Of a stretch of DNA of 32,554 bases, positions 4,942-29,417 are shown piece after piece. Location: assembly GCA_016935915.1 (NCBI GenBank), contig JAFGQB010000116.1, positions 1-32,554 of the forward strand. Direction: 5' to 3'. Origin of the DNA: Spirochaetota bacterium (lineage in GTDB: Bacteria > Spirochaetota > GWE2-31-10 > JAFGQB01). Both the position numbers and the translations under genes were made by a program. The notes below the pieces were generated by a model. It had not been told where the DNA came from. It did no database searches and saw nothing but the letters and a program-made list of their open reading frames with translations. Positions within the stretch are counted from its first letter, which is position 1. The number at the start of each line of letters is the position of its first letter.

Positions 4942-6627
4942 TTATCTTCTTAATGCTTCAACCGGTTCAATAAACGCCGATTTTAATGACGGTATTATAG
5001 TACATGCTGAGGTCAGTAGTGAACCGAACAAAAAGCTGGAAAGAAGTATCATAAATGAAAATTTTACAAAAATTGTATTGGTAACAGGGAACTCTATTCC
5101 TCCCATCATTGCTTCCATGCTTACAGGCATATAGGATAGGATAAGTGTTGTAATACCTCCGATAAATGTTCCGAAAAAAGCACCTATAACACTTAAAAAG
5201 AAAGCTTCAAGAAAGAATACTATGATTATTTCGTGTCTTTTCATTCCGAGAGCTCCCATCATACCGATTTCTTTGATCCTCTCATGTATTACCATTAATA
5301 CTGTGTTTATTATAAGAAATGAAGCTACAATTAAAAACACTGCATAAATTATATAATACATCAATTCAAATGAATTAAACATAGCTAAAAATGGAAATTG
5401 AGTCCAGTCTTTAATAACAAGCTCAGGATTGTTAAATTTTAAAGATATTTCCTGTTTAATATTTCCTATGTCTTTTAAATTTTCCGCAAATACAAATATG
5501 CTTTGAGTTTTATTTCTTAATGATGCTAATTTCTGCATTCTTTCATATGGTATGATGAGCATGGATTCATCTATTGTTATATAATCATATTCAAAAACTC
5601 CAGTAATTCTTGGGTCTGAGTATTTATCCGAATACTGGCTTGATAAGATTTTAAAAGGGATTCTGAGTTCCAGAGCGGATTTAATGTATGAAAGCAGTTC
5701 CTCATTTTTTTTTAAATCATTTTTAATATTATAAACTTCATTGTCTGCATCATATTGATAAGATTTTAAAAATGTTTCCTTCATATAATCAAATATTAAT
5801 AGATATTCAACAGTATTGGCAAAATTACCTATTCTTTCCGGTAGACTTTTTACATCAATGTTCATGAACAAGTTTATGAGGTCCAAATATTTTATTTTTT
5901 CAATTTTATTTAATCTTTTCACCTCTTTTTTTGGAAGGTTTTGATAATTGAAAAGAGTGAGCTTATATGATTTTAATGACTCGTCATATTTATAGCAGTC
6001 TTTCATCAATGTTGCTTCTTCCTTATCGATATTGTTGATAAGCCATTCAAATTCATACTTGTCAATTACTGTCCATATGATTTCCATCTTTTTTGCCAGC
6101 CTGTAACCTATGGCGCATTCATTTTCATTTTTATCGGGATATCTTCCGATTAAAAGACCATTGCTTTTTCTTGTAAAATTGTAATATCCGTATTTAATTT
6201 TATCATCTACTGATTGCAGAATATCATCGATTTTTACACCTGCGATTATCCCGTGTTTTACTTTACTGTTTGTAAAAGTCCCGTATGACAGTATCCTCGG
6301 AGTGACTCTTTTTACTCCTTTGATTTTTTTTATTTCATCAATATAGTAATCCGGATTTTCAACAGGATACCATACAGGCATAAAATTTTCTTCCTTTTCA
6401 TAATCCTTTGTCGTTATTTTAATATGACCTGATTCAAATGTTGTTGCAATAAGCTTCATGCTGTCCATCATGCCTTCCACAAAAGCCATAAAGAAAACTA
6501 TCAACAAGACAGCCAGACCTACTGCAGCCATGCTTAATATTGATCTTCTTGTGTTTCTGAATATATTCCTATATGCAATTTTAATCAAATAAATAAAACT
6601 GGTTAAAATATTGTTCCCCTTATTCAT
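4942..6627 (-). CDS. ABC transporter permease, FtsX/MacB-type, with a large periplasmic domain
   Basis: N-terminal TM after the Arg-rich AYRNIFRNTRRS. Large extracytoplasmic domain (~400 aa). C-terminal FtsX 3-TM module (FLIINTVLMVIHERIKEIGMMGALGMKRHEIIIVFFLEAFFLSVIGAFFGTFIGG). The start is set at the ATG at 6627 (MNKGNN...) because a GGAGGA RBS lies 5 nt upstream; the longer ORF (to 6660) would overlap the upstream gene and has no RBS. Confidence 0.8.
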   Translation of the reverse strand: MNKGNNILTSFIYLIKIAYRNIFRNTRRSILSMAAVGLAVLLIVFFMAFVEGMMDSMKLIATTFESGHIKITTKDYEKEENFMPVWYPVENPDYYIDEIKKIKGVKRVTPRILSYGTFTNSKVKHGIIAGVKIDDILQSVDDKIKYGYYNFTRKSNGLLIGRYPDKNENECAIGYRLAKKMEIIWTVIDKYEFEWLINNIDKEEATLMKDCYKYDESLKSYKLTLFNYQNLPKKEVKRLNKIEKIKYLDLINLFMNIDVKSLPERIGNFANTVEYLLIFDYMKETFLKSYQYDADNEVYNIKNDLKKNEELLSYIKSALELRIPFKILSSQYSDKYSDPRITGVFEYDYITIDESMLIIPYERMQKLASLRNKTQSIFVFAENLKDIGNIKQEISLKFNNPELVIKDWTQFPFLAMFNSFELMYYIIYAVFLIVASFLIINTVLMVIHERIKEIGMMGALGMKRHEIIIVFFLEAFFLSVIGAFFGTFIGGITTLILSYMPVSMEAMMGGIEFPVTNTIFVKFSFMILLSSFLFGSLLTSACTIIPSLKSAFIEPVEALRR

Positions 6628-6652: not shown

Positions 6653-8419
6653 TCACTCAAATCTTAAAGCATCTACTATGGACATTTTTACTGCTTTTAA
6701 AGCAGGGAAAAAAGCAGTAAATGCGGCAATTATTGTCGCAATAATTGGTGAAGCTATTATTGTGTGAAAATTCCATGCTCCTCTGAAAATACCTACTACT
6801 CTGTAACCGAAATTTTCCATATTAGTTTCTGCAAGTATATTGGTATAGTCGATTCCGTAATAAATGATCCAATAGTCCAATACCAGTCCTAAAATTATTC
6901 CGATAAAGGAACCTATAAAACCTATTAGTCCGGCTTCATATAAGAATAACTTTATTATATCGAAATCCCTCATACCGTTGGCTCTAAGCATTCCTATCTC
7001 TTTGGTTCTTTCAAAAATAGCCATGAGCATTGTATTTGCAATACCCATAATTGCAAGTAAAAATAGTATGCCTATCATGATATTTGTTGTTACTATATCT
7101 CCTGCCGATGCAGCAAGGTAATCTTTTGCAACATCCTGCCAGTTAACCACAGTTAAATTATCAGGAAGTTTATTGCCCAGAATATTTTTAATATATTTTG
7201 CAGTTTCATCCTTGCCCGGCAGGGAGTATTCGCTGAAACCTTTTTTTCTTATGCATATCTCTGTAATTGCTCCTTCAAGCATAATACCTTTATTATCCTG
7301 CAAAATATCCAGCGGTAGATATGCAACATTACCGTTAATGGCTGGATTTGGGGAATTAATAATGCCGGCAACGGTTATATCAATTAATTGATGAATGTGT
7401 TTGATTCTGCCTTTTTCATCCTTTTTATCTATTGTCACAGAGCATCTTACAACATCACCTATTTTTACTTTTAGGTCTTTTGCTCCCCTGACTCCAAGCA
7501 GACAAGCGAAACTTCCATTTTCAATGAAATTGTAATAATCTGCTGATTTTAATGCATCTATAATATTATTCGTATAATCTCTTTCCAAAACCCTTTTTAT
7601 GGATCTGAATTTTAAATTTGCCTTATCAAGCTTTTTTTCATATGACTTAAGCTTATTAATGGAAATAAATTTTTTATAATTGTTTAAAGTATTATTGAAA
7701 TTTTTTATTATATATTTATTTATAAAATCTGGTTTATCATAGTTTTTATCTGTTTTTTTTATCAATCCATTGGTAAGTCCGTTTTCTTTTATATAACTGA
7801 TTTTATTGTTCAATTCTTCAATTTTTAATTTTATGTTTTGTATTTTATCATTCTCATCAGTATTGATGTTTTTATAATAATAAGTATCATTTTTAAAATT
7901 CAATTCATAAGCATTCATCAAATTCTTTTTTAAATTTAAATTGTTGATTTCAGGAAGTATCTTGTTTTCAAATATATATTTTGATAATTTGTAAGGGGGT
8001 TCAGAGTATTTATAGTATTTAAATACTTTTTTTTCCATTTCAGGATCAGCACCTATGAACATAAAAGGAAGTTCTATTTCCGGGCTAAGAAGTGATCCGG
8101 TAAAAACAGCTCTCGGAGCTCCAACATAACCTGCTTCATCAAGAGCTTTTAGGATTTTTTCATAATCATTAAAAGTTTCATACATGGGAAGTTCATCTCT
8201 TTTTTCAAAATATGATTTTGAGTAAATTTTTGAACTTCCGGTTTCATAATTTACAAGATTTCTTTTTGAATCAAGATTCATGCCTAAAAGCCATGAATCC
8301 ATCCAGATATAAATGGAAAGACCGATTGTAATTGCAATGGCTGTAAGTATTGTCTTTACTCTGTGTCTTCCAAGGTTTTTAAAAGCAATTACAAGAAGAT
8401 TTATCTTTTCACCTTTCAT
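6653..8419 (-). CDS. ABC transporter permease, FtsX/MacB-type, with a large periplasmic domain containing a coiled-coil
   Basis: 588 aa. N-terminal TM (ILTAIAITIGLSIYIWM). A ~400-aa periplasmic region contains a heptad coiled-coil (NDKIQNIKLKIEELNNKISYIKENG). C-terminal FtsX module (ILFLLAIMGIANTMLMAIFERTKEIGMLRANGMRDFDIIKLFLYEAGLIGFIGSFIG). AGGAGG RBS. The start overlaps the ATPase stop (ATGA). Confidence 0.8.
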   Translation of the reverse strand: MKGEKINLLVIAFKNLGRHRVKTILTAIAITIGLSIYIWMDSWLLGMNLDSKRNLVNYETGSSKIYSKSYFEKRDELPMYETFNDYEKILKALDEAGYVGAPRAVFTGSLLSPEIELPFMFIGADPEMEKKVFKYYKYSEPPYKLSKYIFENKILPEINNLNLKKNLMNAYELNFKNDTYYYKNINTDENDKIQNIKLKIEELNNKISYIKENGLTNGLIKKTDKNYDKPDFINKYIIKNFNNTLNNYKKFISINKLKSYEKKLDKANLKFRSIKRVLERDYTNNIIDALKSADYYNFIENGSFACLLGVRGAKDLKVKIGDVVRCSVTIDKKDEKGRIKHIHQLIDITVAGIINSPNPAINGNVAYLPLDILQDNKGIMLEGAITEICIRKKGFSEYSLPGKDETAKYIKNILGNKLPDNLTVVNWQDVAKDYLAASAGDIVTTNIMIGILFLLAIMGIANTMLMAIFERTKEIGMLRANGMRDFDIIKLFLYEAGLIGFIGSFIGIILGLVLDYWIIYYGIDYTNILAETNMENFGYRVVGIFRGAWNFHTIIASPIIATIIAAFTAFFPALKAVKMSIVDALRFE

Positions 8420-10828: not shown

Positions 10829-12436
10829 ATGATTGATATTAAAAGAAGAGTACCAAGATTTGACATTAAGTTCGAATTACTCAGTAATTTACTTAATGGC
10901 AAAGGTATAAATATAAGTCAGACAGGCATAGGATTTTTAACAGAGGAAGAAATTATTCCTGCAGATAATATTCCGTTTGAAACTGAAATAAAAGGCTACA
11001 TTTTCAGTGATAAAATTTACAAAATTAAAGGAACAGGAAATTTATTGTATTCGAAAAAACTTATAGGTCAGAATGAATTATACAGGAACGGATTAAAATT
11101 CGTAAATATGGATGATGATTCGAAAGAGGCGTTATTCAATCTTTTAAATGATATCAGACTATTTAAAAGTGATATAAAAGATGAGAATACCATCATGACA
11201 CTTGCCGATTTTTACTATTATCCCTCAGATGATTTATTTGCCAAGACCAGTATTTTCAGTGAATATATTGATAAGAATTTCCTGATAAATCATAAAATGT
11301 TTTCTTATTATCTTGATTCATCATGCAGTGCTGTAGGCAATATGATCAACAGAAAAACAAAAGACAAAAAAGAGATGATAATGTTGGGGTCAAATAATTA
11401 TCTGGGACTTGCGACTCATCCCGAGGTTATAAAAGCAGGCATTGAAGCACTAAAAAAATATGGCGCTGGAAACGGCGCTGGTGCAATGGTTGGAGGAACT
11501 TTAGGCATACATAAACAGCTTGAAGAGGAGCTGGCTGATTTTATCGGAAAAGAAGAGGCAATGATATTTAATTCGGGATATTCTGCCAACATAGGAATAT
11601 TATCAGGAATATTAAGACCTAATGATGTGGTAATTAATGATCAATATAATCATGCGAGTATTTTTGACGGATGTCGTTTGAGTCAGTCAAAATTACTGGT
11701 TTTTAAACATAATGATATTAACAGTCTTGAAAAAATCGTTAAAAGAGCAAAATATTATTTTAACGGATGTATAATAGTTATTGATGGTATTTACAGTACA
11801 GACGGAAGTCTTTCTCCTCTGGATGAAATATACAGGATTGCCAGAACTTATGACTGCAAAATAATGGTCGATGAAGCCCATGCTCTAGGCATATTAGGTA
11901 AAAAAGGAAGGGGAACAACTGAATATTTTAATTTAACAGATAAAATTGATATTATCATGGGAACCTTAAGCAAATCTTTAGGATCTTCAGGAGGATTTGT
12001 AGCATCAAGTAAAAATGTTATAGAATATTTAAGATTTTATGCAAGGTCATATTTATTTTCAACAAGTTTTCCCCCTTCAGTTGCCGCAACTGTTTTAAAA
12101 GCATTGCATCTTATTAAAACTGACAACAGTATAAGAGAAAAACTTCATTTCAATATTAGTTATTTTATTAATGGATTAAAAAAGCTTAATTTGGATATAG
12201 GTGAACCAAAATCGGCAGTTGTACCTATTTTTATTTCTGATCAAAAATTACTTTTTAAGATTTCATCTTTATTATTTGATAATGGATTATTTCATAATGT
12301 CATGATATATCCTGCTGTACCTATGGGCGGATCATTGTTAAGATTCGGAATTACAACATCTTTAGATGAAAATATTTTAAAAAAAGCTCTTGTAATAATA
12401 GAAAAAGTTTTAAAAGAAGTCGGATTTTTAAAGTAA
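10829..12436 (+). CDS. Serine palmitoyltransferase-like alpha-oxoamine synthase (PLP-dependent, class II aminotransferase) with an N-terminal PilZ-like domain
   Basis: 535 aa. The C-terminal ~350 aa are an AONS/Spt core: LGSNNYLGLATHPEVIKAGIEALKKYGAGNGA, DEAHALGILGKKGRGT, and the PLP-lysine block GTLSKSLGSSGGFVASS (compare Sphingomonas Spt GTFSKSLASLGGFVAG). The N-terminal ~110 aa carry both PilZ signature motifs in the canonical order and spacing: RRVPR (RxxxR) at aa 6-10 and NISQTG ([D/N]xSxxG) at aa 28-33. Confidence 0.8.
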   Translation: MIDIKRRVPRFDIKFELLSNLLNGKGINISQTGIGFLTEEEIIPADNIPFETEIKGYIFSDKIYKIKGTGNLLYSKKLIGQNELYRNGLKFVNMDDDSKEALFNLLNDIRLFKSDIKDENTIMTLADFYYYPSDDLFAKTSIFSEYIDKNFLINHKMFSYYLDSSCSAVGNMINRKTKDKKEMIMLGSNNYLGLATHPEVIKAGIEALKKYGAGNGAGAMVGGTLGIHKQLEEELADFIGKEEAMIFNSGYSANIGILSGILRPNDVVINDQYNHASIFDGCRLSQSKLLVFKHNDINSLEKIVKRAKYYFNGCIIVIDGIYSTDGSLSPLDEIYRIARTYDCKIMVDEAHALGILGKKGRGTTEYFNLTDKIDIIMGTLSKSLGSSGGFVASSKNVIEYLRFYARSYLFSTSFPPSVAATVLKALHLIKTDNSIREKLHFNISYFINGLKKLNLDIGEPKSAVVPIFISDQKLLFKISSLLFDNGLFHNVMIYPAVPMGGSLLRFGITTSLDENILKKALVIIEKVLKEVGFLK

Positions 12437-12545
12437 GTAATTATCCATATGAATTATTTTTTTATAAGAAAAAGAAATAGATTATTATTTTAATAAATAA
12501 ATATTTCTTAACAATAAAATTTAAATTGATGCATGATAAAACAAG

Positions 12546-13991
12546 ATGGATATTATAGATTTTTTAGAAAAGAATTTATGCCGTTATTCTGACAAGAGAG
12601 CATTGGTTGATGTTGATAATAATATTTGTTTAACTTATAAAAATTTATATGATAATATTTTATATTATGCAGATTATTTAAAAAAAAGCGGCATAAGGGA
12701 AAATCAGAAAGTCGGTTTATACCTTAATAATTCTATCATACATATAATTTTATTATATAGCTTGTTATATTTAAAAGCAGTACCGGTTCTAATTGATTCA
12801 AGAAACACATTAAGGGAAATAAAAGAATGTCTGATAAGTTCAGATACAAAGGTAATAATTTATGAAAATGCTAACTTTGAAATAAATGAATTATACAGTA
12901 CAGCAGATAAGATTTTTGTCATAAAAGAAAGTATAGAAGATTTTAATATCAAAGATAATAAAATAAGCTGTATAATAAAAAATTTCAATAATGATTATAA
13001 TAATAAAAAATTAAAAAAGAGTAAAAAATTAACTTACTTTATACTTTTTACCTATCGAGGAACAGGACAAGTTCTGCCTGTTATACTTTCAGAAAGCGCA
13101 ATAATAAACAGTCTATTCAGTAATTTTTATTTGAATAAAAATATTAAAGATATTATTTTATTGTTGATTTTACCGATTCATCATATTTTTGCATTAACAT
13201 GCAATTTACTTAGCCCTTTATCGCTTGGAGTAACAATAATATTGACCAATAAAATACAGCCTTATAAAATTTTAAATATTATTGAAGAATATAGGATTAC
13301 TTATTTAATATTAGTACCGACTTTAGTTTATGTCCTTTTAAATTCAATAAAAAAAAATAAATATAATCTTATGAGCTTAAGAAACGGAATTGTAGGCGGA
13401 AACAAATTTCAGAATGATCTTTATAAAGATTGGCATGAAGCATTAAATTGTATCCTGCTGCAGGGATACGGCTTGACAGAAACATGTCCTGTAATCTGTA
13501 ATCAATGGAATAACAATAAACCAGGTTCAATCGGGAAATTAATGAAAGGTGTAAAAGCCAGATTAATTGATAAAAATGGTAATTATAATGATAAGGAAGG
13601 TGTTTTATGGATCAAATCTAAAATGATATTATCTAAATATTTAAATAATGAAAAAGAAAATAAAGAATATATTGATAATGGATGGTTTAATACAGGCGAT
13701 ATTATTGCAAAAGATAGTGATGATTTTTATTATTTTATAAAAACAATTAAAAACATTGCAAAAGTAGGAGGATCAACAGTAGATTTAAAAGAAGTTAAAA
13801 CTATTATTCAAAAGTTTAATTTTGTACATTCCTGTTTGTTATCAGTAGAACATGATAAATTATGGAATGATAAGATAATTTGTCATTTAACTTTAAGGGA
13901 AAATATAGATAAAGTTGATATATATAATTATTTTAAATCTGTTTTAGCATCATTTAAACTGCCCGGTAATATTATTATTAATTCAATTTAA
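12546..13991 (+). CDS. ANL-superfamily adenylate-forming enzyme (acyl-ACP synthetase / fatty-acyl-AMP ligase-like), with degenerate motifs
   Basis: 481 aa. Clear ANL motifs are YGLTET (A5, YGxTE) and GWFNTGD (A7, GWxxTGD), with the hinge region IAKVGGSTVDLKEV. However, the P-loop A3 reads TYRGTGQVLPV instead of TSGTTGxPKG (no Lys), and the C-terminus ends ...FKLPGNIIINSI where A10 PKTxSGK is expected (no catalytic Lys). Confidence 0.65.
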   Translation: MDIIDFLEKNLCRYSDKRALVDVDNNICLTYKNLYDNILYYADYLKKSGIRENQKVGLYLNNSIIHIILLYSLLYLKAVPVLIDSRNTLREIKECLISSDTKVIIYENANFEINELYSTADKIFVIKESIEDFNIKDNKISCIIKNFNNDYNNKKLKKSKKLTYFILFTYRGTGQVLPVILSESAIINSLFSNFYLNKNIKDIILLLILPIHHIFALTCNLLSPLSLGVTIILTNKIQPYKILNIIEEYRITYLILVPTLVYVLLNSIKKNKYNLMSLRNGIVGGNKFQNDLYKDWHEALNCILLQGYGLTETCPVICNQWNNNKPGSIGKLMKGVKARLIDKNGNYNDKEGVLWIKSKMILSKYLNNEKENKEYIDNGWFNTGDIIAKDSDDFYYFIKTIKNIAKVGGSTVDLKEVKTIIQKFNFVHSCLLSVEHDKLWNDKIICHLTLRENIDKVDIYNYFKSVLASFKLPGNIIINSI

Positions 13992-14018
13992 CATTAATTA
14001 ATAAATAATTGACATGAC

Positions 14019-14047
14019 AATAATTAAGTAATAGAATTTAATTAGAT
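14019..14047 (+). promoter_or_regulatory. Near-consensus sigma-70 promoter: TTGACA-N17-TAGAAT
   Basis: ttgaca, then a 17-nt spacer (tgacaataattaagtaa), then tagaat. Read directly in the 247-nt intergenic region between the ANL gene and the 444-aa ORF. It would give a leader of about 185 nt before the 14239 ATG. Confidence 0.45.
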
Positions 14048-14238
14048 TTAGGAGATTAATAATTAATATAATTAATTTATATAATGACATCAAAAAAAAT
14101 TATGTAATTAAATATCCATCTTTTAAAAAAAACATAGAAAAGTCTGGTTTTTTAGAATATTTTTTTATTGAAAAAAGAAAAATATTTGCGTGGAATAAAA
14201 CGGTAAATTTACTGGATTTTACTTTTTTCAAGTTTACA

Positions 14239-15573
14239 ATGAGATTATCAAAAAATTTTAAAAAAAAATTTGATGATATTTTTTTATATAATGTTTATCC
14301 AGCCGGTAAATTTTTGAAAGATATAATAAAGAACGGATGGAAATCAGGGGTTTTATCAATAAAAGAATATAATATAATCGTTCAATTTTCTGACTTATAT
14401 AATAAAATGTCAGCTGTAAATAAAAAGCCTGTATTAATCTATAATGATTTTATCAAATTTGAAGATTCTTTTTATAAAGTTATCAGCAATGATATTTATC
14501 TTAAAAATTTATTGGAAGGATTAAATAAAATATTTACATATTATAAGGAAAGTTTTTTTAATAATAATGAAAAAATAATTAAACAGCTTATAAATTTATT
14601 AGAATCTTTTTTTAGTTTCAATTTTATAATGCCTTCAATCTATGATATTATTTTAGCTTTTAATATTATTAATGCCAGAAGATTTTTAAACTGGGATGAA
14701 CTTTATGAAAAAACAAAAGAAGATTTTATACAATCAAATTTTTTTGACTGTTCGGTTGAAGTATTTGAACAAATTGTAAAATCTATTAAAAGTTCATTGT
14801 CAGAAATTGAAATTATTGAAAAGGATATTGCCAGGATAGAATGGCTTAAAAATTATTCATCATTATCAAATAACACTAACCCTGATAAAATAATTTGTTT
14901 TTATATAGAGATTTTAAAAAAAGATTGGCATAAAGATTCAGATGATCTTTTTCTTTTATTATTGTCGTTATTTAACGGAATAATTGAAAAGATGAATGAA
15001 CTATTAAGTAAAGATTTTGTATTGATGAATGAAAAAGAAGAGTTGATTAAGAAAAGGATTTTCAGTAATATGGAACTTGAAGAGCTTTTTAATAATTTGA
15101 AAGAACAATATACATCTGCAAAAGACAGGCACTTATCAGTTACTCCTTCTAAAATACCGTTAGAATTTTATATAAGTCAGATAAATCCGGAATTTATATT
15201 TACTGATATAAATCAGAAATTTATTTTTGAAAAGATATATAATGTATTTTATTTTTTAAGACAAATGGCATTTAAATTATATTATATCATAAATGATGAA
15301 AAAGAACTTAATAAAATGAATTTTATTAAATTTATGATTGTTAAACCTGAAGAATGGAAAGGTAAAATATTAATATCTTTAATTAATTTTTATATTGAAC
15401 TTTTTTTACAGATATGCGGATATTTTAAAGAAAAAAATTTAATATTAGAATTAAATAAATTAAATAAATTGATTTTGGATAGAGATAAATCTTTAAAAAA
15501 AATTGAAATGATTTCAGACAGTAATAAAATTATTGAAAGATTTTTAAAAAATGATAAAATAATTTTATTATGA
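14239..15573 (+). CDS. Hypothetical protein (444 aa, predicted all-alpha, no recognisable motifs), translationally coupled to the downstream receiver-domain gene
   Basis: Long ORF in an otherwise densely coding region. It is Lys/Ile/Phe/Glu-rich. Its stop overlaps the next gene's start (ATGA at 15570-15573). No catalytic or binding motif was recognised by eye. Confidence 0.5.
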   Translation: MRLSKNFKKKFDDIFLYNVYPAGKFLKDIIKNGWKSGVLSIKEYNIIVQFSDLYNKMSAVNKKPVLIYNDFIKFEDSFYKVISNDIYLKNLLEGLNKIFTYYKESFFNNNEKIIKQLINLLESFFSFNFIMPSIYDIILAFNIINARRFLNWDELYEKTKEDFIQSNFFDCSVEVFEQIVKSIKSSLSEIEIIEKDIARIEWLKNYSSLSNNTNPDKIICFYIEILKKDWHKDSDDLFLLLLSLFNGIIEKMNELLSKDFVLMNEKEELIKKRIFSNMELEELFNNLKEQYTSAKDRHLSVTPSKIPLEFYISQINPEFIFTDINQKFIFEKIYNVFYFLRQMAFKLYYIINDEKELNKMNFIKFMIVKPEEWKGKILISLINFYIELFLQICGYFKEKNLILELNKLNKLILDRDKSLKKIEMISDSNKIIERFLKNDKIILL

Positions 15574-16055
15574 TAGAAAATAAAGAAAATAATGGATTCA
15601 GCAAAAATAATGAAGTTATTGATGATGCAGTAGTTGCTCAGGAAGAAAATCTAGAAGAAGTTAAAGATGATAATTTAAAATTTGCAGGAAAAATTGTTTT
15701 AGTTGTTGATGATATATTATATGTGGTAAAGTCAATATCAAAAATTTTAAGGGATGAAGGCTTTTTTGTTTTAACTGCACAAACGGGTCTTGACGCTATT
15801 AAAAAAGTTGAGCAATATTCGCCTGATTTAGTTACAATAGATCAGAAACTTCCTGATATGATGGGTACAAAATTAGTGGAAGAAATAAGAAAAATAGAGA
15901 CAGGAAAAAAGACAAAGATTATATTTATATCTGCACTTTATGATAAAGATAAAATAAAATCGATACTTCATCTTGGTGTTGATAATTATTTATTAAAACC
16001 TTTTAAGAAATCTGTTCTGGTAAATACAATTAAAAAGATTTTTAATGAAGAATAA
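15570..16055 (+). CDS. Single-domain response regulator (CheY-like receiver) with a ~40-aa acidic N-terminal extension
   Basis: Receiver signatures: KIVLVVDD (acidic pocket), phospho-acceptor Asp in LVTIDQKLPDM, T/S in IFISA, and the conserved Lys in LLKPF. There is no output domain. Confidence 0.8.
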   Translation: MIENKENNGFSKNNEVIDDAVVAQEENLEEVKDDNLKFAGKIVLVVDDILYVVKSISKILRDEGFFVLTAQTGLDAIKKVEQYSPDLVTIDQKLPDMMGTKLVEEIRKIETGKKTKIIFISALYDKDKIKSILHLGVDNYLLKPFKKSVLVNTIKKIFNEE

Positions 16056-16058
16056 TAA

Positions 16059-17210
16059 TCAATTTTTAAATGGATGTCTGTATTTTAATTTAGTTTTTGG
16101 TAATACTAAATTTTTAAAGATTTTTAAGAAAAAATGAATTATTTTATTATTATGAAATAAATAAATATAATTTGAAATAATGACGCCGCCTAATTTTATT
16201 TTAAATTCATAAGTTGTAACTCCAAGCTCAAGGTTTTTAAATTTATTTTCAATGGCAAATTTCAATCCCTGGTAAAATATATTGAAATAAATGTTATATT
16301 TTTCTTTTTTTTTATAGTCCATGCCAACATATAATAATCTAGCAGTGAAATCATCAAGAACAATAAATGCAAATCCCAGAATATGATTGTTTTTTTTTAA
16401 CAACAAAACCAATGATTTTTTATATAGATATTTGTTCATACTTTTGAAAAAATTTTCAGTTAAAATTTCTCTTCTGTATTCTTTGGCATGCTCATAGCAA
16501 TTTAAGTATAATTTTAATAATTCTGGAATTATTTCGGAATAATTATAGCAATATTCTATTTTTAAATTACTTTGATTTATAATGTTATTGCATTTTTTAA
16601 CAAATCTTCTGTAATTATAACGCAAATCATTTATATAATCATTAAAATTCTTCCATTTTATTTTTATTTCTACATTAGGCATGTTACTTGCCTCTATAAA
16701 TTTAAAACTTTTTATTTCATTGGATATTTTATAATCTTTTTTATAAAAGTCTCTGATCGCCAATAAGTTTGCATTGTTTTCTTTTGCTATTTTTTTCATT
16801 TCATTTATAATCAATTCAATGATTTTTAATCTGCTGTATTCTTTTTGAGTATTTATTGCAAAAGTATTGCCCAGAGATATGGGAGAACCGCATTCGGTTA
16901 ATTTTATAATACAAAAATTCGGGATAATCTTTCTAGTGAATTTTATGATTTTCAGGAAAAATCCTTTTAAGAAAATAAATAAATCTACACTTATTGTATA
17001 AACGCATGCATGTCCAACAATTTGATTTGCATTGTTATAAACCACGAGATAATAAAATTTACAGTCATTGATTTTGCTTTCTTCAACAGCTTTTAAAAAA
17101 TCAAATTTATTTATTATATTATCGCTTTCTACTATTGAATCCCAGCTCTTTTTATCTATTTCATTGATATTTTTAAAAATTTTTATTTGATACATAAAAA
17201 AATATTCCAA
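16059..17210 (-). CDS. GNAT-fold acyltransferase of the BioF2-like / FemAB-like (DUF482-type) family
   Basis: 383 aa. The N-terminal signature KSWDSIVES...FDFLKAVEESKINDCKFYYLVVY matches the characteristic W...F(L)..FL.A.EES... opening of PF04339/PF13480 proteins. The size (~380 aa) and the presence of two GNAT-like halves are consistent with that family. Confidence 0.5.
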   Translation of the reverse strand: MEYFFMYQIKIFKNINEIDKKSWDSIVESDNIINKFDFLKAVEESKINDCKFYYLVVYNNANQIVGHACVYTISVDLFIFLKGFFLKIIKFTRKIIPNFCIIKLTECGSPISLGNTFAINTQKEYSRLKIIELIINEMKKIAKENNANLLAIRDFYKKDYKISNEIKSFKFIEASNMPNVEIKIKWKNFNDYINDLRYNYRRFVKKCNNIINQSNLKIEYCYNYSEIIPELLKLYLNCYEHAKEYRREILTENFFKSMNKYLYKKSLVLLLKKNNHILGFAFIVLDDFTARLLYVGMDYKKKEKYNIYFNIFYQGLKFAIENKFKNLELGVTTYEFKIKLGGVIISNYIYLFHNNKIIHFFLKIFKNLVLPKTKLKYRHPFKN

Positions 17211-17447
17211 AATGATTAAATTTATAGTATAATAATATTCAAAGAAATTAAATATTATTTTAAAAAGTAAAAAAATTTTGCTGTTTTTTTAAAATTTCTA
17301 TTTTGTATTATATCAAAACAGCAAGGATCGCTGGTTTTATTATTGCTGAGTTAAACAAACGGTCATTTTTTTTACGATTTTTATAGATAAAATCAACATT
17401 GATTTTAAATTTATTTTAATTTAATAAAAAGATTTCTGGAAATTATT

Positions 17448-17681
17448 ATGATTAAAAAAGAAGTTATTGATATAATAAGTACCGTTACAAGAATTGATAA
17501 GGAAAAGATAAAAGATAATTCTTCTTTGAGAGATGATCTTTTTGTTGATTCACTTCAGGCTGTTCAAATTGTAAATCTGATTCAGGATAAATATAATATA
17601 AAAATCGATGAAATAGAAATATTTAATGTTGATAATCTTACAGATATTGTTGCTATAGTTAATGAATATTTAGAGAAATAA
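17448..17681 (+). CDS. Acyl carrier protein
   Basis: 77 aa with the phosphopantetheine attachment motif LRDDLFVDSLQAVQIV (DSL serine), acidic helix II and ACP-typical length. Confidence 0.85.
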   Translation: MIKKEVIDIISTVTRIDKEKIKDNSSLRDDLFVDSLQAVQIVNLIQDKYNIKIDEIEIFNVDNLTDIVAIVNEYLEK

Positions 17682-17727
17682 CATTTTTATTAATATTATC
17701 ATATTGATTAAAGTAATTTCATAAAAT

Positions 17728-19392
17728 TTATAGTTCGGGAATTAAAATTTCATTTATAAATTTTTCATCCGGAATGCTATCAGGAAAACCCATTGTTTTT
17801 GCAATTTTATTTAGTGTAACTTTTATTTGATCAATGCTTTTTTTTTCCATTAGCTGAACAGTCAGAATATTTCTGAATTTAAATATTTCTTTTAATGTAT
17901 CCTTATTGAATCTTCTGTTGAAATAAACACTTTCATCATTATAGTGATATGATTTATTAATATTTTTAAATATATAGTAAGAATACTTAATACTTTTTTT
18001 ATAATCCATGGTTTTATGCTTCCATTTTTTAAACATACCATTTAATTCCCATTTTTTCCTTATTTCCGACAGAGATAGGTAGCTTAATGGAAGAACTATT
18101 AATGGATAAAGCTGAACAGAAGGGGAGGATTGTGCGATTTCAAGCTTATTGATAAATTGAATTGTATTTTCTATTGTTTTGTTGTTTTCACCGGGGTATC
18201 CGATCAGAAACGTCATTAAAACTGTAATACCGAATTTATCCAATAATTCAATACCCTTTTTTATATCATGTAAATCCTGTTTTTTATTCATTCGATTCAA
18301 TTGTCCTTTATCGCCGGATTCGACGCCAATATACGAATAAAAAAGACCGGAATTTTTAATGTTTTTTATATTATTTTCAGTTATGGATGATGCTCTCATG
18401 AAACCTGCCCAGGCTGTTACTTTACATTCAATAAATGTATCAGTGATTTCATCTATTCTTTTTTTATTAAAAAACACGTTGTCATCAACAACATGAATCA
18501 AAGGCATTATGTTTTTTTTTCTTGATACATTATTTATCAGATTCAGCTCTTTTTTTATGCTTTTTTTTGATCTTAAGAATAATTTTGGATAGAGATAGCA
18601 AAAATTGCAATATCCGCATTTATATGGACAACCTATTGAAGTTCTGATAGGAATTCTATCAGGTATTTCATCCAGTAATTCCCAATTGGTAAAATCTTCA
18701 TTATAATTGATATTTTCAGTAATGAATTTATTAATTATAAAATCTCCTTTTTCATTTGGTATCGCTATATTATAAAAACTGCTAAAATCCCTTTTGCTTT
18801 TATCCAGTTCGATTAATAGATTTAAAAGAATATTTAAGCCATGCTGGGAAATAATTAAAAAATCCAATTTTATATCTTTATAATTCAGAGGAAATAGGGA
18901 ATAATTTTGATCAATTTTATAATTTAAGTTGTTGTATTTTAATATTGAATTATAATGATTGTTCCATAAAAAACTGTTATAGATAAAAATACCTCCGGCT
19001 ATTATATATGTTTCCGGAAATTTTTCTTTAAGTAAGTTCACTGTATTCTTTAGAGTTTCTCTTTTAAATATCATTGTAGTAGAAATGCAGATAGCAAAAG
19101 GATTTATTTTAATTATTTTTTCTATTGTATATTCAGAAAGATTATTTATTAAAATTGCATTATAGCCTTTTTCTTTTAATTTACTCGTTAAATAATAGCC
19201 TGATGCCGGCATGGTAACAGTAGAATAATTTTTAATTTTTCTTAATTCATTTAAATTATATTTGAATTTAATTATTTCATAAAGGTTTTGTAATGTAAGT
19301 TCTCTTTCATCTGATTTTAATTTTAATATAAGATCAAGATCATTATTTTTATCTATTGTTATTGGTGCAAATATAATTATGGTTTTTTTCAT
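17728..19392 (-). CDS. B12-binding-domain radical SAM protein (class B rSAM)
   Basis: 554 aa. Radical-SAM cysteine triad CPYKCGYCNF (CxxxCxxC) at about aa 255. It is preceded by a ~240-aa N-terminal region with a Rossmann-like cobalamin-binding-domain pattern (IIIFAPIT..., TMPASGYYLTSKLKEKGYNAILINN). The long C-terminal extension is typical of class B methyltransferase-like rSAMs. Confidence 0.7.
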   Translation of the reverse strand: MKKTIIIFAPITIDKNNDLDLILKLKSDERELTLQNLYEIIKFKYNLNELRKIKNYSTVTMPASGYYLTSKLKEKGYNAILINNLSEYTIEKIIKINPFAICISTTMIFKRETLKNTVNLLKEKFPETYIIAGGIFIYNSFLWNNHYNSILKYNNLNYKIDQNYSLFPLNYKDIKLDFLIISQHGLNILLNLLIELDKSKRDFSSFYNIAIPNEKGDFIINKFITENINYNEDFTNWELLDEIPDRIPIRTSIGCPYKCGYCNFCYLYPKLFLRSKKSIKKELNLINNVSRKKNIMPLIHVVDDNVFFNKKRIDEITDTFIECKVTAWAGFMRASSITENNIKNIKNSGLFYSYIGVESGDKGQLNRMNKKQDLHDIKKGIELLDKFGITVLMTFLIGYPGENNKTIENTIQFINKLEIAQSSPSVQLYPLIVLPLSYLSLSEIRKKWELNGMFKKWKHKTMDYKKSIKYSYYIFKNINKSYHYNDESVYFNRRFNKDTLKEIFKFRNILTVQLMEKKSIDQIKVTLNKIAKTMGFPDSIPDEKFINEILIPEL

Positions 19393-25816: not shown

Positions 25817-26503
25817 TTAATAATTGGCAATCAATATTACAAATTCACCTGAAATTTTTTTTTCTTTTAATTTGTTTAAAGTATTTTCTGGTAAATCTAT
25901 TATTATATTTTCGTTAATTTTTGTTAATTCTTTACCTAAACATATCATTTTATCCGGAAATATTTCTTTGATATTTTCCAATATTTTTAAAATTCTATGA
26001 GGACTTTCATAAATTATATGAGTGGCTTCTATTCCTTTCATTTCTGATAATTTTTTTTTCTGTTTATTTACTTTTGGTGAAATAAAACCATGAAAAAAAA
26101 ATTTATCACACCTGAAACCGGATATTGTAAGAAGATTTAAAAATGCAGAAATACCTGTTATTCCGATAACGTCTAAACCTTTTAATCTGCATTCTTTTAC
26201 TATCAGATAACCGGGATCTGATATGCAGGGTGTACCTCCGTCTGTTATCAGTGCAACTGATTTATGACTTTCTAATAATTTAAGTATGCCGGCACAGGAA
26301 TATTTTTCATTATAGCTGTGATAGGTGATTAACTTTTTTTTAATATCATAAAAATTCAATAACTTTATTGAATGTCTTGTATCTTCACATGCGATGATGT
26401 CTACCGATTTTAATATATTTAAAGCTCTAATTGTAATATCTTCCAGGTTGCCTATAGGTGTTGAAACAATATATAAAGTTGATGGCTGTACTTTTTCGGA
26501 CAT
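25817..26503 (-). CDS. rsmI: 16S rRNA (cytidine1402-2'-O)-methyltransferase RsmI (tetrapyrrole-methylase fold)
   Basis: LYIVSTPIGNLEDITIRALNILKSVDIIACEDTRHSIKLL...ITDGGTPCISDPGYLIV are canonical RsmI blocks. 228 aa, somewhat short at the C-terminus. Confidence 0.8.
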   Translation of the reverse strand: MSEKVQPSTLYIVSTPIGNLEDITIRALNILKSVDIIACEDTRHSIKLLNFYDIKKKLITYHSYNEKYSCAGILKLLESHKSVALITDGGTPCISDPGYLIVKECRLKGLDVIGITGISAFLNLLTISGFRCDKFFFHGFISPKVNKQKKKLSEMKGIEATHIIYESPHRILKILENIKEIFPDKMICLGKELTKINENIIIDLPENTLNKLKEKKISGEFVILIANY

Positions 26504-26724
26504 TTTTATAATTTTATAATTTAAATTAGATTTTAATTATTTGAATATATTATAATAATTAAAAAATGTCCATAATATTAATAATTATATAATTTGTAAA
26601 ATTTAATTTTAATCAAAATGAATTTGATATTTAATCTTTATTATGATTATATAAATATATAAGGTAAATGTGGTTTGTATTAGATATTTATAAATCAAGT
26701 TGTTTATCATAGGAGATATTGAAT

Positions 26725-27618
26725 ATGATAAAGAGTAGTAATTCTTTAAGAAGGAAGTTTTTATTAATAATATTTTTATATATCATTGTTTTTTTTATTG
26801 CAGTAACAGTTATGTTTTTTTTATCTCAAAAATCAAATCTTAATTCTTTTATAATTTTTATTATTTATATATTTATTCTTAATGTATCACTAGTTGCAGT
26901 AATTTATTTATTCATTTCGATACATATATTAAAACCTATTAAACATTTAATAAATGATGTTAAAAATATTACAGATCAGGATGATTTTTCTATTAAATTG
27001 GATGTCAATAGAAAAGATGAAATAGGTGAATTGAAATATGAATTCAGCTCAATCTTAAAACAGCTTGATTTTTCAAGGAAAAAGTTTTCAGGTGCATTAT
27101 CAGAATTGTCTGAAATTGATTGGCTGACAAATGTTGGAAATAAACAGGGATTTGATAAGAAAATAATTGAGGAATTAAACAGGGCATCAAGACTCAGGAT
27201 ACCTTTTTCTTTAATGTTGATAGATATTGATAATTTTAAATATTTTATTGATAAGTACGGGCTGCAAAAAGGTGATCAATGCTTGATTTTTATTTCCAAA
27301 GCAATAAGAGAAACCTTTAAAAGGGCAGGGGATTATATTGCCAGATATGGTGGAGAAAAATTTGCTGTTATTTTGCCTAATACTGATACAAAAGGTGCAT
27401 TAATTGTTGCTGAGAAATTACAGAGGAAAGTATATGAGTTGAATTTGTCCGGTGAAACTTTGACTGTTTCTGAAAGAATAACCATAAGCATTGGAGTAAG
27501 TTCAACAATTTCAAAAATTAATTCCAGCCAGAAAGAATTAATACAAAATGCTGAAGAAGCACTTATGGATGCTAAAAATGATGGAAAAAACAGGATACGT
27601 TTAGTTAAAATTGATTGA
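26725..27618 (+). CDS. Membrane-anchored GGDEF-domain protein with a degenerate active site (GGEKF) and an intact RxxD I-site
   Basis: Two N-terminal TM helices. GGDEF-domain blocks: DWLTNVGNKQGFD, FSLMLIDIDNFKYFIDKYG, KRAGDYIARYGGEKFAVILPNTD (RAGD I-site exactly 5 aa before GGEKF, the same spacing as PleD RESD...GGEEF), and SIGVSS. Start placed at the ATG at 26725 (AGGAGA 8 nt upstream) rather than the TTG at 26719. Confidence 0.8.
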   Translation: MIKSSNSLRRKFLLIIFLYIIVFFIAVTVMFFLSQKSNLNSFIIFIIYIFILNVSLVAVIYLFISIHILKPIKHLINDVKNITDQDDFSIKLDVNRKDEIGELKYEFSSILKQLDFSRKKFSGALSELSEIDWLTNVGNKQGFDKKIIEELNRASRLRIPFSLMLIDIDNFKYFIDKYGLQKGDQCLIFISKAIRETFKRAGDYIARYGGEKFAVILPNTDTKGALIVAEKLQRKVYELNLSGETLTVSERITISIGVSSTISKINSSQKELIQNAEEALMDAKNDGKNRIRLVKID

Positions 27619-27625
27619 TTTAGAG

Positions 27626-27961
27626 TCAATCGATTATAATCCTATAGCAATTATCTTTAACGGATATTTTCATTTCATAATAGTTGTATAAATCAAATTC
27701 ATAACTTTCATTAGTGATAAATGAATGATTATTATCATTTCTTATAATAGTTATTTTGCCTTGTAATTTTTTATAGAACCAATAGTCTGTTTTTTTGTAG
27801 CTGTTCAAAAAAAATGCGATTTTTGTGCCGTTTATGGCAACGCTTTTAAAATCCCTCTCTGTATTATTATAAACTGAAATTATTCCAGTTGTTTCATTTA
27901 CAGTACAATTAAATAAGAAGATCAATAATGATATTAGTAAATAATATATAATTTTGAACAT
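27626..27961 (-). CDS. Small secreted/lipoprotein-like hypothetical protein
   Basis: 111 aa. N-terminal signal peptide MFKIIYYLLISLLIFLFNC with a Cys at a lipobox-like position (LFNC). No other motifs. Confidence 0.45.
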   Translation of the reverse strand: MFKIIYYLLISLLIFLFNCTVNETTGIISVYNNTERDFKSVAINGTKIAFFLNSYKKTDYWFYKKLQGKITIIRNDNNHSFITNESYEFDLYNYYEMKISVKDNCYRIIID

Positions 27962-28195
27962 AATAATTTAATTTATATTATTAATTATACAGCATTTTTT
28001 TAAAAATAAATATTATATAGGTCAAATTTCGAATAAATGTATAATAAACAGATAGTTTTTTAGACATTAAGTTTTTCTGTCATTGCGAAGGCTGAATGCC
28101 TGAAGCAATGACTTGTAATTTCAATGAATGAGGCGGCATCTCATGAAATTTCTTAGGTTAATCACTTATTCGACATTCGACCTATATAACAAATA

Positions 28196-28224
28196 TTTGC
28201 ATATAAAAAATTCTATTTATAGAC
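28196..28224 (+). promoter_or_regulatory. Candidate sigma-70 promoter (TTGCAT-N17-TAGACT) for the glycosyltransferase operon
   Basis: Read directly: ttgcat, 17-nt spacer, tagact. About 50 nt upstream of the 28275 start codon. Confidence 0.3.
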
Positions 28225-28274
28225 TCAATACATTATTTATGATATAAAATTTTGTAAAAAAGTCAGGTAATTTT

Positions 28275-29417
28275 ATGACAGTATTGGCTATTCACAATTA
28301 TTATAAACTAAGAGGCGGTGAGGATGCTGTTTTTGAAAATGAGACTTTATTGCTGGAGAAAAGCGGGCATAGAGTAATAAAATATATAAAAAATAATTCA
28401 GAAATTGACAATTATACTTTTTTGAAGAAAATTAAATTTTTATTTAAATGTATCTATAACAGTGAAACAATATGTGAGTTAAAAAAGATTGTAAAAGAGA
28501 ATAAAATTGATATTGTACATGTGCATAATGTTTTTCCTTTGATTTCTCCTTCGATATATGCTTTTTTTCATAAAAATAAAATAAGAGTGGTTCAAACTGT
28601 TCACAATTACAGGTTTATATGCCCTAACGGGTTGTTTTTTACGCACAAAGAAAAATGCACTCGATGTATTAAAGGCAACTTTCTAAATTGCATTATATTA
28701 AGATGCTATAAGGATTCTATAGTTTTTTCGATTTTATATGCGCTGATTATATTTTTAAATCAGGTAACTTTCAGGGAAAAGATTGCCAAATATATAGTTT
28801 TAACACAATTTGTAAAAGATATTTTTATTCAGGCAGGTTTTGATGCAAAAAAGATCTATATCAAGGATAACGGTTTAATTGATAAAAAAATTAAAAGAAA
28901 TAAAAACAAGGATTATTTTTTATTTTTAGGAAGAATTTCATTTGAAAAGGGTATTGACTTTTTAATGGAGAGTTTTTTAAAAATGCCTGAATATAATTTA
29001 ATGATTGCCGGAACCGGTGATAATCTGGAATATTATAAATCAAAATATAATTACCAAAATATTAAATTTAAGGGTTTTGTTAAAGATGAAGAGAAAATTG
29101 AGCTGTTAAGACAAGCCTCTGCTTTAATTGTTCCTTCAATATGGTATGAAAATTATCCTGTAACAGTTATTGAAGCCTTTAGCTGCGGTATACCGGTAAT
29201 TGCTTCAAATATCGGCGGATTGTCTTATATAATAGAGGATGGAGTAGATGGATTATTGTTCAAAATGCTTGATTATGATTCATTAAAAAAAAACATTGAG
29301 TTAATAAATAATAATGATTTTAGAAAAAAAATCGGGGACAATGCCAGAAATACTTTTTTAAAAAAAATGGAAATGTCGGAAAATATAAAAAGACTGATTG
29401 AAATATATGAGGATTGA
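28275..29417 (+). CDS. Glycosyltransferase family 4 (GT-B, retaining) protein
   Basis: 380 aa. The C-terminal GT4 donor-binding region is LFLGRISFEKGIDFL...GTGDNLEYY...SIWYENYPVTVIEAFSCGIPVIASNIGG (EX7E motif ENYPVTVIEA). Confidence 0.85.
   Translation: MTVLAIHNYYKLRGGEDAVFENETLLLEKSGHRVIKYIKNNSEIDNYTFLKKIKFLFKCIYNSETICELKKIVKENKIDIVHVHNVFPLISPSIYAFFHKNKIRVVQTVHNYRFICPNGLFFTHKEKCTRCIKGNFLNCIILRCYKDSIVFSILYALIIFLNQVTFREKIAKYIVLTQFVKDIFIQAGFDAKKIYIKDNGLIDKKIKRNKNKDYFLFLGRISFEKGIDFLMESFLKMPEYNLMIAGTGDNLEYYKSKYNYQNIKFKGFVKDEEKIELLRQASALIVPSIWYENYPVTVIEAFSCGIPVIASNIGGLSYIIEDGVDGLLFKMLDYDSLKKNIELINNNDFRKKIGDNARNTFLKKMEMSENIKRLIEIYED

Follow-up and report, generated by a model that had tools for sequence, protein, structure and literature searches.

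A putative MITE-like element carrying a REP-like hairpin between divergent genes of a Spirochaetota bacterium

[quoted passage not shown] The repetitive extragenic palindromes (REPs) of Pseudomonas have a GA-[palindrome]-GAA layout and a GT(A/G)G head (PMC2817692), and a REPIN is an inverted REP doublet (PMC3116915, PMC3337134); REPIN/RAYT systems are described as lineage-specific and vertically inherited. Here we analysed a 32,554-bp contig from a metagenome-assembled genome (MAG) of a Spirochaetota bacterium (GCA_016935915.1, contig JAFGQB010000116.1), referred to in its whole length as the window, with a GC content of 27.6% (mean 0.276), and in it a small block situated in the spacer between a lipoprotein-like gene and a divergent glycosyltransferase family 4 (GT4) gene.

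On balance, we favour reading this block as a small non-autonomous, TIR-bounded, MITE-like DNA element that carries one copy of a REP-like hairpin, a reading made plausible a priori by the high MITE numbers in Spirochaetes (PMC11602168). Shown for it are imperfect 31-nt TIRs, the lack of coding capacity, presence or absence of the block at an otherwise conserved orthologous site, a position outside both promoter cores and a GC-rich core that is one copy of a widespread REP-like hairpin motif. The block probably represents a new MITE family, and the locus is of an ordinary kind.

The TIR-bounded block and its empty sites

The features of the block, in window positions, are as follows.
28014–28044, plus strand: left TIR, 31 nt including TATATA, with the degenerate heptamer pair GTCAAAT-TTCGAAT
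28014–28019, unstranded: left TATATA, a putative TSD or the outermost TIR bases; being a palindrome, it fits both readings
28020–28182, unstranded: core of the putative inserted element, GGTC...GACC, 163 bp, with no credible open reading frame (ORF); missing in contigs L005, L217 and L215, where the flanks align
28076–28112, plus strand: hairpin motif copy, (Y)GTC-ATTGC-GA-[AGGC tgaat GCCT]-GAA-GCAAT-gac, the GC-rich core (hairpin 1)
28117–28150, plus strand: hairpin 2, AATTTCA..ATGAG-gcggcat-CTCAT-GAAATT; dG −6.3, z −0.83, 40 of 200 shuffles equally stable
28158–28188, minus strand: right TIR, 31 nt, 26/31 complementary to the left arm, with the exact tandem ATTCGAC-ATTCGAC at 28168–28181

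An earlier note on this DNA, made from its letters, had described a GC-rich island flanked by inverted repeats of ~16 bp, and both parts of that description stood. GC content reached a maximum of 0.43 at 28080–28139, compared with 0.05–0.15 in the flanks (27960–28059 and 28180–28259), and the island is GC-rich only relative to these extremely AT-rich intergenic flanks, with nearby coding sequence at 0.30–0.38. The inverted repeats proved longer than had been claimed, as 26 of the 31 nucleotides of TATATAGGTCAAATTTCGAATAAATGTATAA (28014–28044) match the reverse complement of 28158–28188; the right arm as first placed had to be moved one base further left, to 28163–28178. The pair is the longest inverted repeat of the contig and includes G/C-containing sequence, the remaining listed pairs being mostly A/T. 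In dinucleotide shuffles of the same intergenic region, the best 31-nt inverted repeat scored 20.2 ± 1.0 matches with a maximum of 22, well short of the observed 26, and 0.00 matches to the 23-nt TIR pattern were expected in window shuffles. Both arms are built on two tandem GTCGAAT-like heptamers, exact on the right, where the short attcgac-attcgac tandem had already been recognised, and degenerate on the left, and the TIR end sequence reads GGTC(G/A)AAT(G/T)TCGAATAA. The TATATA hexamer is identical on both sides of the block, and ~113 bp lie between the arms. Folded as a whole and compared with shuffles, the block gave z-scores of −5.9 (plus strand) and −8.2 (minus strand) as RNA and −6.0 as DNA, the minus-strand RNA folding better owing to G-U pairs. 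All six frames are rich in stops; the only ORF overlapping the block (39 aa, 28128–28247) contained no Pfam family and, as a query padded to 40 aa, had no homologue in a collection of 5.8 billion proteins.

Relatives of the locus were found by protein searches with GT4 and the lipoprotein-like ORF, and only two related lineages found in this way kept the lipoprotein–GT4 arrangement. The first is represented by the JGI contigs L005 (= L216) and L217, which come from different samples, with GT4 72–75% and GGDEF 86% identical, and the second by L215 (NCBI GCA_016880495.1, contig JAEHDH010000724.1), with the lipoprotein 65% and RsmI 89.5% identical. The gene order GGDEF–lipoprotein–GT4–WecG–Impact is kept in L005 and the lipoprotein–GT4 adjacency in L217 and L215. 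The spacer measures 145 bp in all three contigs versus 313 bp in the window (27962–28274); its left flank (ATTAATTATACAGCATTTTTT...) and right flank (...AAAATTCTAATTATAGACTCA..TATTATTTATGATATAAAATTTT) align with those of the relatives, and the entire TIR-bounded block is missing there. When every possible excision was scored against both empty sites, the best fit was a segment of 166–170 bp starting at 28013–28020 and ending at 28182–28186, a length corresponding to the 163-bp core plus ~5–6 bp of flanking TATATA. The empty sites hold one TATAT(G/A)A, and the single copy would have the look of a transposon insertion with a short TSD. More distant GT4 homologues (L006 and L210–L213) contained neither the element nor the hairpin motif; they keep the GT4–WecG–Impact(–SurE) operon with other genes upstream and are uninformative on polarity.

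Window positions 25909–28127, with the left TIR and hairpin 1, are reproduced exactly in L214, which comes from an independent Logan assembly (run SRR13394437) of the same organism, and the block is therefore no artefact of MAG assembly. The L214 contig stops inside the element, right after hairpin 1 at an ATGA-ATGA duplication; low coverage may be the cause, or else branching of the assembly graph at a repeat or variant, and we conclude nothing from it.

The flanking genes and their promoter-like sites are the following.
27626–27961, minus strand: lipoprotein-like ORF, 111 aa, carrying a signal peptide and a lipobox-like site (LFNC); ATG at 27961
27984–27989, minus strand: −10-like TATAAT of the lipoprotein-like gene, a consensus match only
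28220–28248, plus strand: GT4 promoter-like site, TAGACT (28220–28225), 17 nt ending in TGa, and TATAAA (28243–28248), a consensus match only
28275–29417, plus strand: GT4 glycosyltransferase gene, first gene of the GT4–WecG/TagA–Impact(YigZ)–SurE operon

The GT4 protein is 100% identical to MBN2545493.1, and the adjacent protein bears the locus tag JXB50_06830. The GT4 promoter-like site lies 32–38 nt to the right of the block and is base-for-base the same, in hexamers and spacing, in L005, L217 and L215, in agreement with the earlier placement of the island upstream of the GT4 promoter. On the other side, the putative weak −35 of the lipoprotein-like gene (28007–28012) directly adjoins the left end of the block, and the ATTAATTATACAGCATTTTTT block around the TATAAT is kept in all relatives. 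These sites are consensus matches rather than proof of function; judged by them, the block leaves both promoter cores intact, and it interrupts no gene.

Set beside described MITEs, the 163-bp core without a transposase gene falls within the size range of 50–800 bp, the 31-nt arms exceed the minimum of 10–15 bp, and the block is missing at the orthologous sites of L005/L217 and L215. The earlier note had offered a MITE as its second possibility, and this part stood as far as the size of ~165 bp, the 31-bp TIRs, the lack of coding capacity, and the TATATA flanks with absence from the orthologous site in two relatives are concerned. In these respects the block resembles bacterial MITEs such as the Correia elements of Neisseria, RUP of S. 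pneumoniae, Nezha and MITEAba12, which are 100–200 bp long, have TIRs of ~25–30 bp and no transposase, lie between genes near promoters, fold into long stems as RNA or DNA, are flanked by short direct repeats and show presence/absence polymorphism (PMC11602168, PMC3184786, PMC6382973). Unlike known MITEs, it came with no second copy or parent insertion sequence (IS) in our searches, its TSD is ambiguous, its core hairpin is of a REP-like class, and its TIR sequence was unmatched by exact pattern in three large collections. The TATAG start, which we take to resemble the Correia TIR, is too short to count as evidence.

Several of these points weigh against a MITE-like element. Within the 32.5-kb contig there is no second copy, as searches with TIR and hairpin patterns at up to 3 mismatches and with blastn-short returned self matches only. 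The first TIR pattern, TATAGGTCNAATNTCGAATAA, which contained flanking TATA that is perhaps target sequence and was thus of lower sensitivity, gave 4 isolated chance matches in the GTDB species genomes, a collection that does not include the source MAG, as shown by the absence of the window's own TIRs from the matches; GGTCRAATKTCGAATAARTG gave 6 chance matches in JGI metagenome contigs and none in IMG/VR. The chance matches had no partner TIR and no similarity outside the pattern. The combined TIR-plus-hairpin pattern had 0 matches in IMG/VR, and blastn against PLSDB plasmids and INPHARED phages gave no meaningful match. A parent IS with the same TIRs was not found, nor was an IS-sized TIR pair in the exact-pattern scans of GTDB, JGI and IMG/VR. 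In addition, TATATA is palindromic and of low complexity, which leaves the duplication unproven and makes TA plus a longer TIR possible as well. The two empty-site lineages are mutual sisters relative to the window genome, and one gain here or one loss there is therefore equally parsimonious. Finally, slippage between the short flanking direct repeats could delete a long palindrome without a transposase.

Taking the MITE-like reading as our working model, we infer that cut-and-paste transposition either brought the block to this site or later removed it in the sister lineage. The transposase, provided in trans, would bind to the TIR heptamers, and ~5–6 bp (or TA) of AT-rich target would be duplicated. 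No transposase occurs among the ORFs of the contig, which fits a non-autonomous element. The hairpin would be either a nested secondary insertion or captured cargo. Transposition with TIRs and TSDs and the propagation of REP-type hairpins are different mechanisms. The effect on the cell would probably be small, with the promoters moved ~168 bp further apart and their upstream (UP-element or activator) DNA replaced; given this replacement at both promoters, the insertion may affect expression of the surface-polysaccharide (GT4/WecG) operon and the lipoprotein gene.

The core hairpin and its family

The earlier note had listed two stable hairpins in the island. Hairpin 1 (28079–28112) is exactly as described, with a dG of −18.3 kcal/mol, a z-score of −6.2 and 0 of 200 shuffles equally stable. 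The stability of hairpin 2 did not hold up; the structure exists, with its 5-bp stem at 28128–28144 instead of starting at 28126, and with a dG of −4.2 to −6.3 and a z-score of −0.8 to −0.9 it is a weak stem-loop indistinguishable from chance.

The arms of hairpin 1, GTCATTGCGA...GAAGCAATGAC, resemble a repeat that is common as spurious small ORFs. The pattern CATTGCGAG-N(3–30)-CGAAGCAATC occurred in at least 120 contigs of IMG/VR, the matches listed comprising 186 instances and as many as 6 in a single contig, versus 0 matches for a composition-matched scrambled pattern, and GTCATTGCGA-H-N(3–28)-D-GAAGCAAT, which excludes the G..C closing pair, occurred in 74 contigs versus 12 for a permuted-stem control. 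The closing pair was complementary in 60 of 78 instances (A-T 31, C-G 18, T-A 11) versus 3 of 12 in the control, and at least 3 nested Watson–Crick pairs were present in the variable insert of 58 of 167 unique instances versus 2.6 expected from shuffles. As the inner hairpins are unrelated in sequence and length, the covariation is genuine, and the frame that encloses it, Y-GTC-ATTGC-GA-[hairpin]-GAA-GCAAT-C-Y, is invariant. The outer 18–20 nt are nearly invariant from 22% to 72% GC and the inner helix covaries freely. In an alignment of 40 sequences, 96.8% of cells pair versus 80.5% in shuffles, and pairing collapses when partners are slid, the alignment being partly selected for inner stems and the closing-pair and nested-pair counts being the unbiased figures.

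A covariance model, R1, built from 40 phage-contig instances and none from the window, matched window positions 28076–28112 on the plus strand with 39.4 bits (E 1.9e-6) and had no other significant match in the contig or the related loci; 0.00 matches to the hairpin motif pattern were expected in shuffles. The window copy has the outer stem, the GA/GAA internal loop, the variable inner hairpin and the Y followed by GTC, a head found in 281 unique instances as well as in the window. Its closing pair places it in the A-T class (GA-A GGC tgaat GCC T-GAA), which makes up 31 of the 78 instances, and it differs only 3′ of the stem, where GAC instead of CYC extends the outer stem to 8 bp, the same as in three phage instances. 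No Rfam family covers the motif in eight phage loci, and as literal DNA or RNA strings in the open-access literature it was not found, unrelated primers only being returned. By sequence logic only, a hammerhead core, a K-turn, SRP domain IV, an attC site and a dif site were considered and rejected, as the motif does not have their defining nucleotides.

The motif is present in at least 190 IMG/VR contigs of 22–72% GC; among bacteria, Alphaproteobacteria and Cyanobacteria included, it is found on plasmids or chromids of Novosphingobium, Methylobacterium, Methylosinus, Legionella lytica, Aulosira and Calothrix, and it also occurs in phages of Helicobacter canis; the Novosphingobium plasmid pSA1 carries it at no fewer than 40 places, with perfect REPIN-like doublets. 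In the annotated collections examined, none of the matches is marked as a repeat or an RNA. Most copies of the motif stand between genes that run in the same direction, and they occur in both orientations, 34 times sense and 20 times antisense in those low-GC phage contigs for which ORF calling is reliable, which argues for a role at the DNA level or one independent of orientation. Related phages differ in whether they have the motif at orthologous intergenic sites, and no recurrent protein family, nuclease or transposase stands beside it in the phage contigs, its neighbours being portal, capsid and tail genes. Head-to-head inverted doublets with the heads outward, ~20–90 nt apart, form long hairpins whose arms are often different subtypes, and arrays occur as well.
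L025 10490–10560; L043 2833–2916; L045 4598–4672; L060 8663–8738: inverted doublets
L093 8244–8375 and 9036–9165; L218 4003–4076: inverted doublets
L187 ~1370–1560 and ~7150–7330; L199 ~6000–6500 and ~7650–7900: arrays

Some individual phage loci are worth recording in their own right. Doublet subtypes comprise 24-nt and 30–34-nt forms, and tandem or mixed arrays, whose periods are 33–64 nt, include units that are truncated or variant (e.g. gtcattgcgaacgtagcacaagaatc), as at L063 2697–2818. At a gene junction that is orthologous in three related phage contigs, L018 (4340–4395) differs from L016 and L106 in that ~45 extra nucleotides with the repeat lie between the upstream stop/Shine-Dalgarno region and the next ATG, and the hairpin would rejoin the split Shine-Dalgarno sequence and start codon. 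In the related phages L076 (5267–5915) and L079 (10195–10844), inward-facing inverted copies bracket a segment of ~585 bp without an evident ORF that contains near-consensus TTGACA-17-TATAAT promoters and a long-range stem (gtcattctga...tcagaatgac) and may be a non-coding RNA cassette. The repeat also appears to lie in frame inside phage genes (L039 ~5913 and L052 3846–5330), examples being a lipoprotein-like ORF with ...FSKTVIASEAKQSVAEKT... and a portal-like one with ...IATPSARNDSPFVSLRGAEHRSNL...; the gene calls there are crude, and such copies recall Rickettsia palindromic elements. Long perfect hairpins at L093 2401–2516 and 11274–11423 match plant miRNA-precursor Rfam families with E 2e-5 to 0.1 and are probably generic long hairpins (MITE-like).

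Among known kinds, REP/REPIN comes closest to the family. Like REPs, REPINs and bacterial interspersed mosaic elements (BIMEs), which are mobilised by RAYT (IS200/IS605-like Y1) transposases, the family combines a short conserved 5′ head with an imperfect GC-rich palindrome, in the GA-[palindrome]-GAA layout that Pseudomonas REPs have too (PMC2817692), lies between genes, is present in many copies in some genomes and forms doublets and arrays. Unlike REPs, its head is GTC rather than GT(A/G)G, and the outer stem and internal loop are conserved around a hypervariable inner hairpin, whereas REPs keep the whole palindrome within a species; unlike in REPIN/RAYT systems, the outer sequence is near-identical across phyla and in phages. 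By analogy, then, the family may work like REP/REPIN, and we do not file it as a member of that group. The window holds a single motif copy with no inverted partner. A further parallel is offered by the solo IS200/IS605-type terminal stem-loops beside Borrelia lipoprotein genes (Delihas 2009, as summarised in PMC3184786), which are likewise stem-loops of transposon origin without a transposase, in a spirochaete, next to lipoprotein genes and with compensatory changes; they differ in lying at gene 3′ ends on plasmids and in having no sequence relation, while the present hairpin sits in a TIR-bounded block upstream of a gene.

More tentatively, and with distinctly less confidence than we place in the MITE-like reading of the block, the core may belong to a cross-phylum structured repeat class not previously described, Y-GTC-ATTGC-GA-[hypervariable hairpin]-GAA-GCAAT-C, that would be read by a conserved, widely distributed protein such as a hairpin-binding HUH/Y1 transposase clade. 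The doublets, the arrays, the gain and loss and the cross-phylum frame together would imply a conserved recognising protein instead of lineage-specific REP/RAYT co-evolution. If this is true, the window represents the first case of the hairpin repeat nested in a TIR-type element. Through its core hairpin the element is connected with a repeat of very wide distribution, one without annotation in the records examined. Were the repeat truly uncharacterised, it would pose the tractable question of which protein recognises the GTC-ATTGC-GA/GAA-GCAAT frame across phyla, and it would account for many spurious small ORFs in metagenome annotation. As a by-product of the analysis, this cross-phylum hairpin repeat is more interesting than the locus itself.

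Alternatives to a TIR-bounded mobile element

If the 34-nt REP-like hairpin (28079–28112) were the only mobile or functional unit and the inverted repeats an unrelated local palindrome, the block would be a composite of the REP/BIME type. Hairpin 1 is a bona fide member of its family, which is indeed gained and lost alone at orthologous intergenic phage sites, occupies at least 40 places on one Novosphingobium replicon and forms REPIN-like doublets and arrays. We nevertheless regard this as unlikely, since the difference from the relatives consists of the full 166–170 bp block and not of the 34-nt hairpin, no other inspected instance of the family lies inside similar TIRs, and the block contains no second, inverted motif copy.

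Equally unlikely, in our judgement, is an ancestral regulatory palindrome serving a regulator of the divergent promoters. Its two operator-like sites, inverted and with tandem GTCGAAT heptamers in both, would have disappeared from the sister lineage when the DNA between the flanking TATATA repeats was deleted. The position exactly between divergent promoters and the direct heptamer repeats in the arms, as in many operators, speak for it; palindromes are prone to deletion, and gain and loss are equally parsimonious. On the other hand, the promoter blocks are conserved and apparently complete without the block in two genomes, the arms stand ~113 bp apart around a core with a repeat of selfish type, and the TIR motif occurs nowhere else in the contig.

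The earlier note had named a small RNA (sRNA) first, reasoning that GC islands of AT-rich genomes are typical of structured RNAs. On this account a small structured RNA gene or structured 5′ leader would, for example, start after the TATAAT at 28040–28045 and end at hairpin 1 with its U-rich tail (UUGUAAUUU), or read through into GT4. The local GC excess and the stable hairpin are indeed features of GC-island sRNAs, hairpin 1 is very stable and followed by a T-rich stretch, and the minus strand folds better still. By contrast with such sRNAs, the block shows no conservation in relatives and has no promoter, terminator or Rfam family, and its GC excess is explained by the repeat element. At the gathering score, the Rfam scan proposed in the note gave no match in the whole contig; at E ≤ 10, three weak matches in 27900–28320 (sau-19, CRISPR-DR40 and DdR6; E 0.8–5.6) did not cover the hairpin, and no tRNA or tmRNA was found. 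Terminator-like sites with a GC-rich stem, a 3–8-nt loop and a T run numbered 0 in 27800–28400; the interior of hairpin 1 is 18 nt and its T-rich tail is weak. The promoter count did not exceed the shuffled expectation, and no two-hexamer promoter lies inside the block; because TATAAT is present 160 times in the contig, its occurrence at 28040–28045 carries no evidential weight. The block is missing in relatives that have both genes and their promoters, and the hairpin family occurs in both orientations to genes. The sRNA claim was thus not borne out, and we consider an RNA slightly less likely again than the two preceding alternatives. The rule that leads from a GC island to a structured RNA was misleading here, where a widespread REP-like hairpin repeat supplies the GC-rich core. 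The case advises caution, since mobile or selfish DNA, and not a regulatory RNA, accounts for this GC island and its hairpins in an AT-rich genome.

It is very improbable that the palindrome arose by chance in AT-rich DNA of low complexity, or that it is an artefact of assembly: the surrounding DNA is 5–15% GC and imperfect inverted repeats are abundant (41 pairs listed), but the TIR and fold energies were never approached by shuffles, the match is carried by the G/C-containing parts, and the left two-thirds were reproduced by the independent assembly.

A lipid-type gene cluster elsewhere in the window

Apart from the block, positions 10829–19392 of this spirochaete MAG contig hold a lipid-type gene cluster with the following members.
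10829–12436: serine-palmitoyltransferase/BioF-like PLP enzyme with a long N-terminal extension
12546–13991: acyl-CoA/AMP ligase
16059–17210: FemAB-like protein
17448–17681: acyl carrier protein, 77 aa
17728–19392: B12-binding radical SAM methyltransferase-like protein

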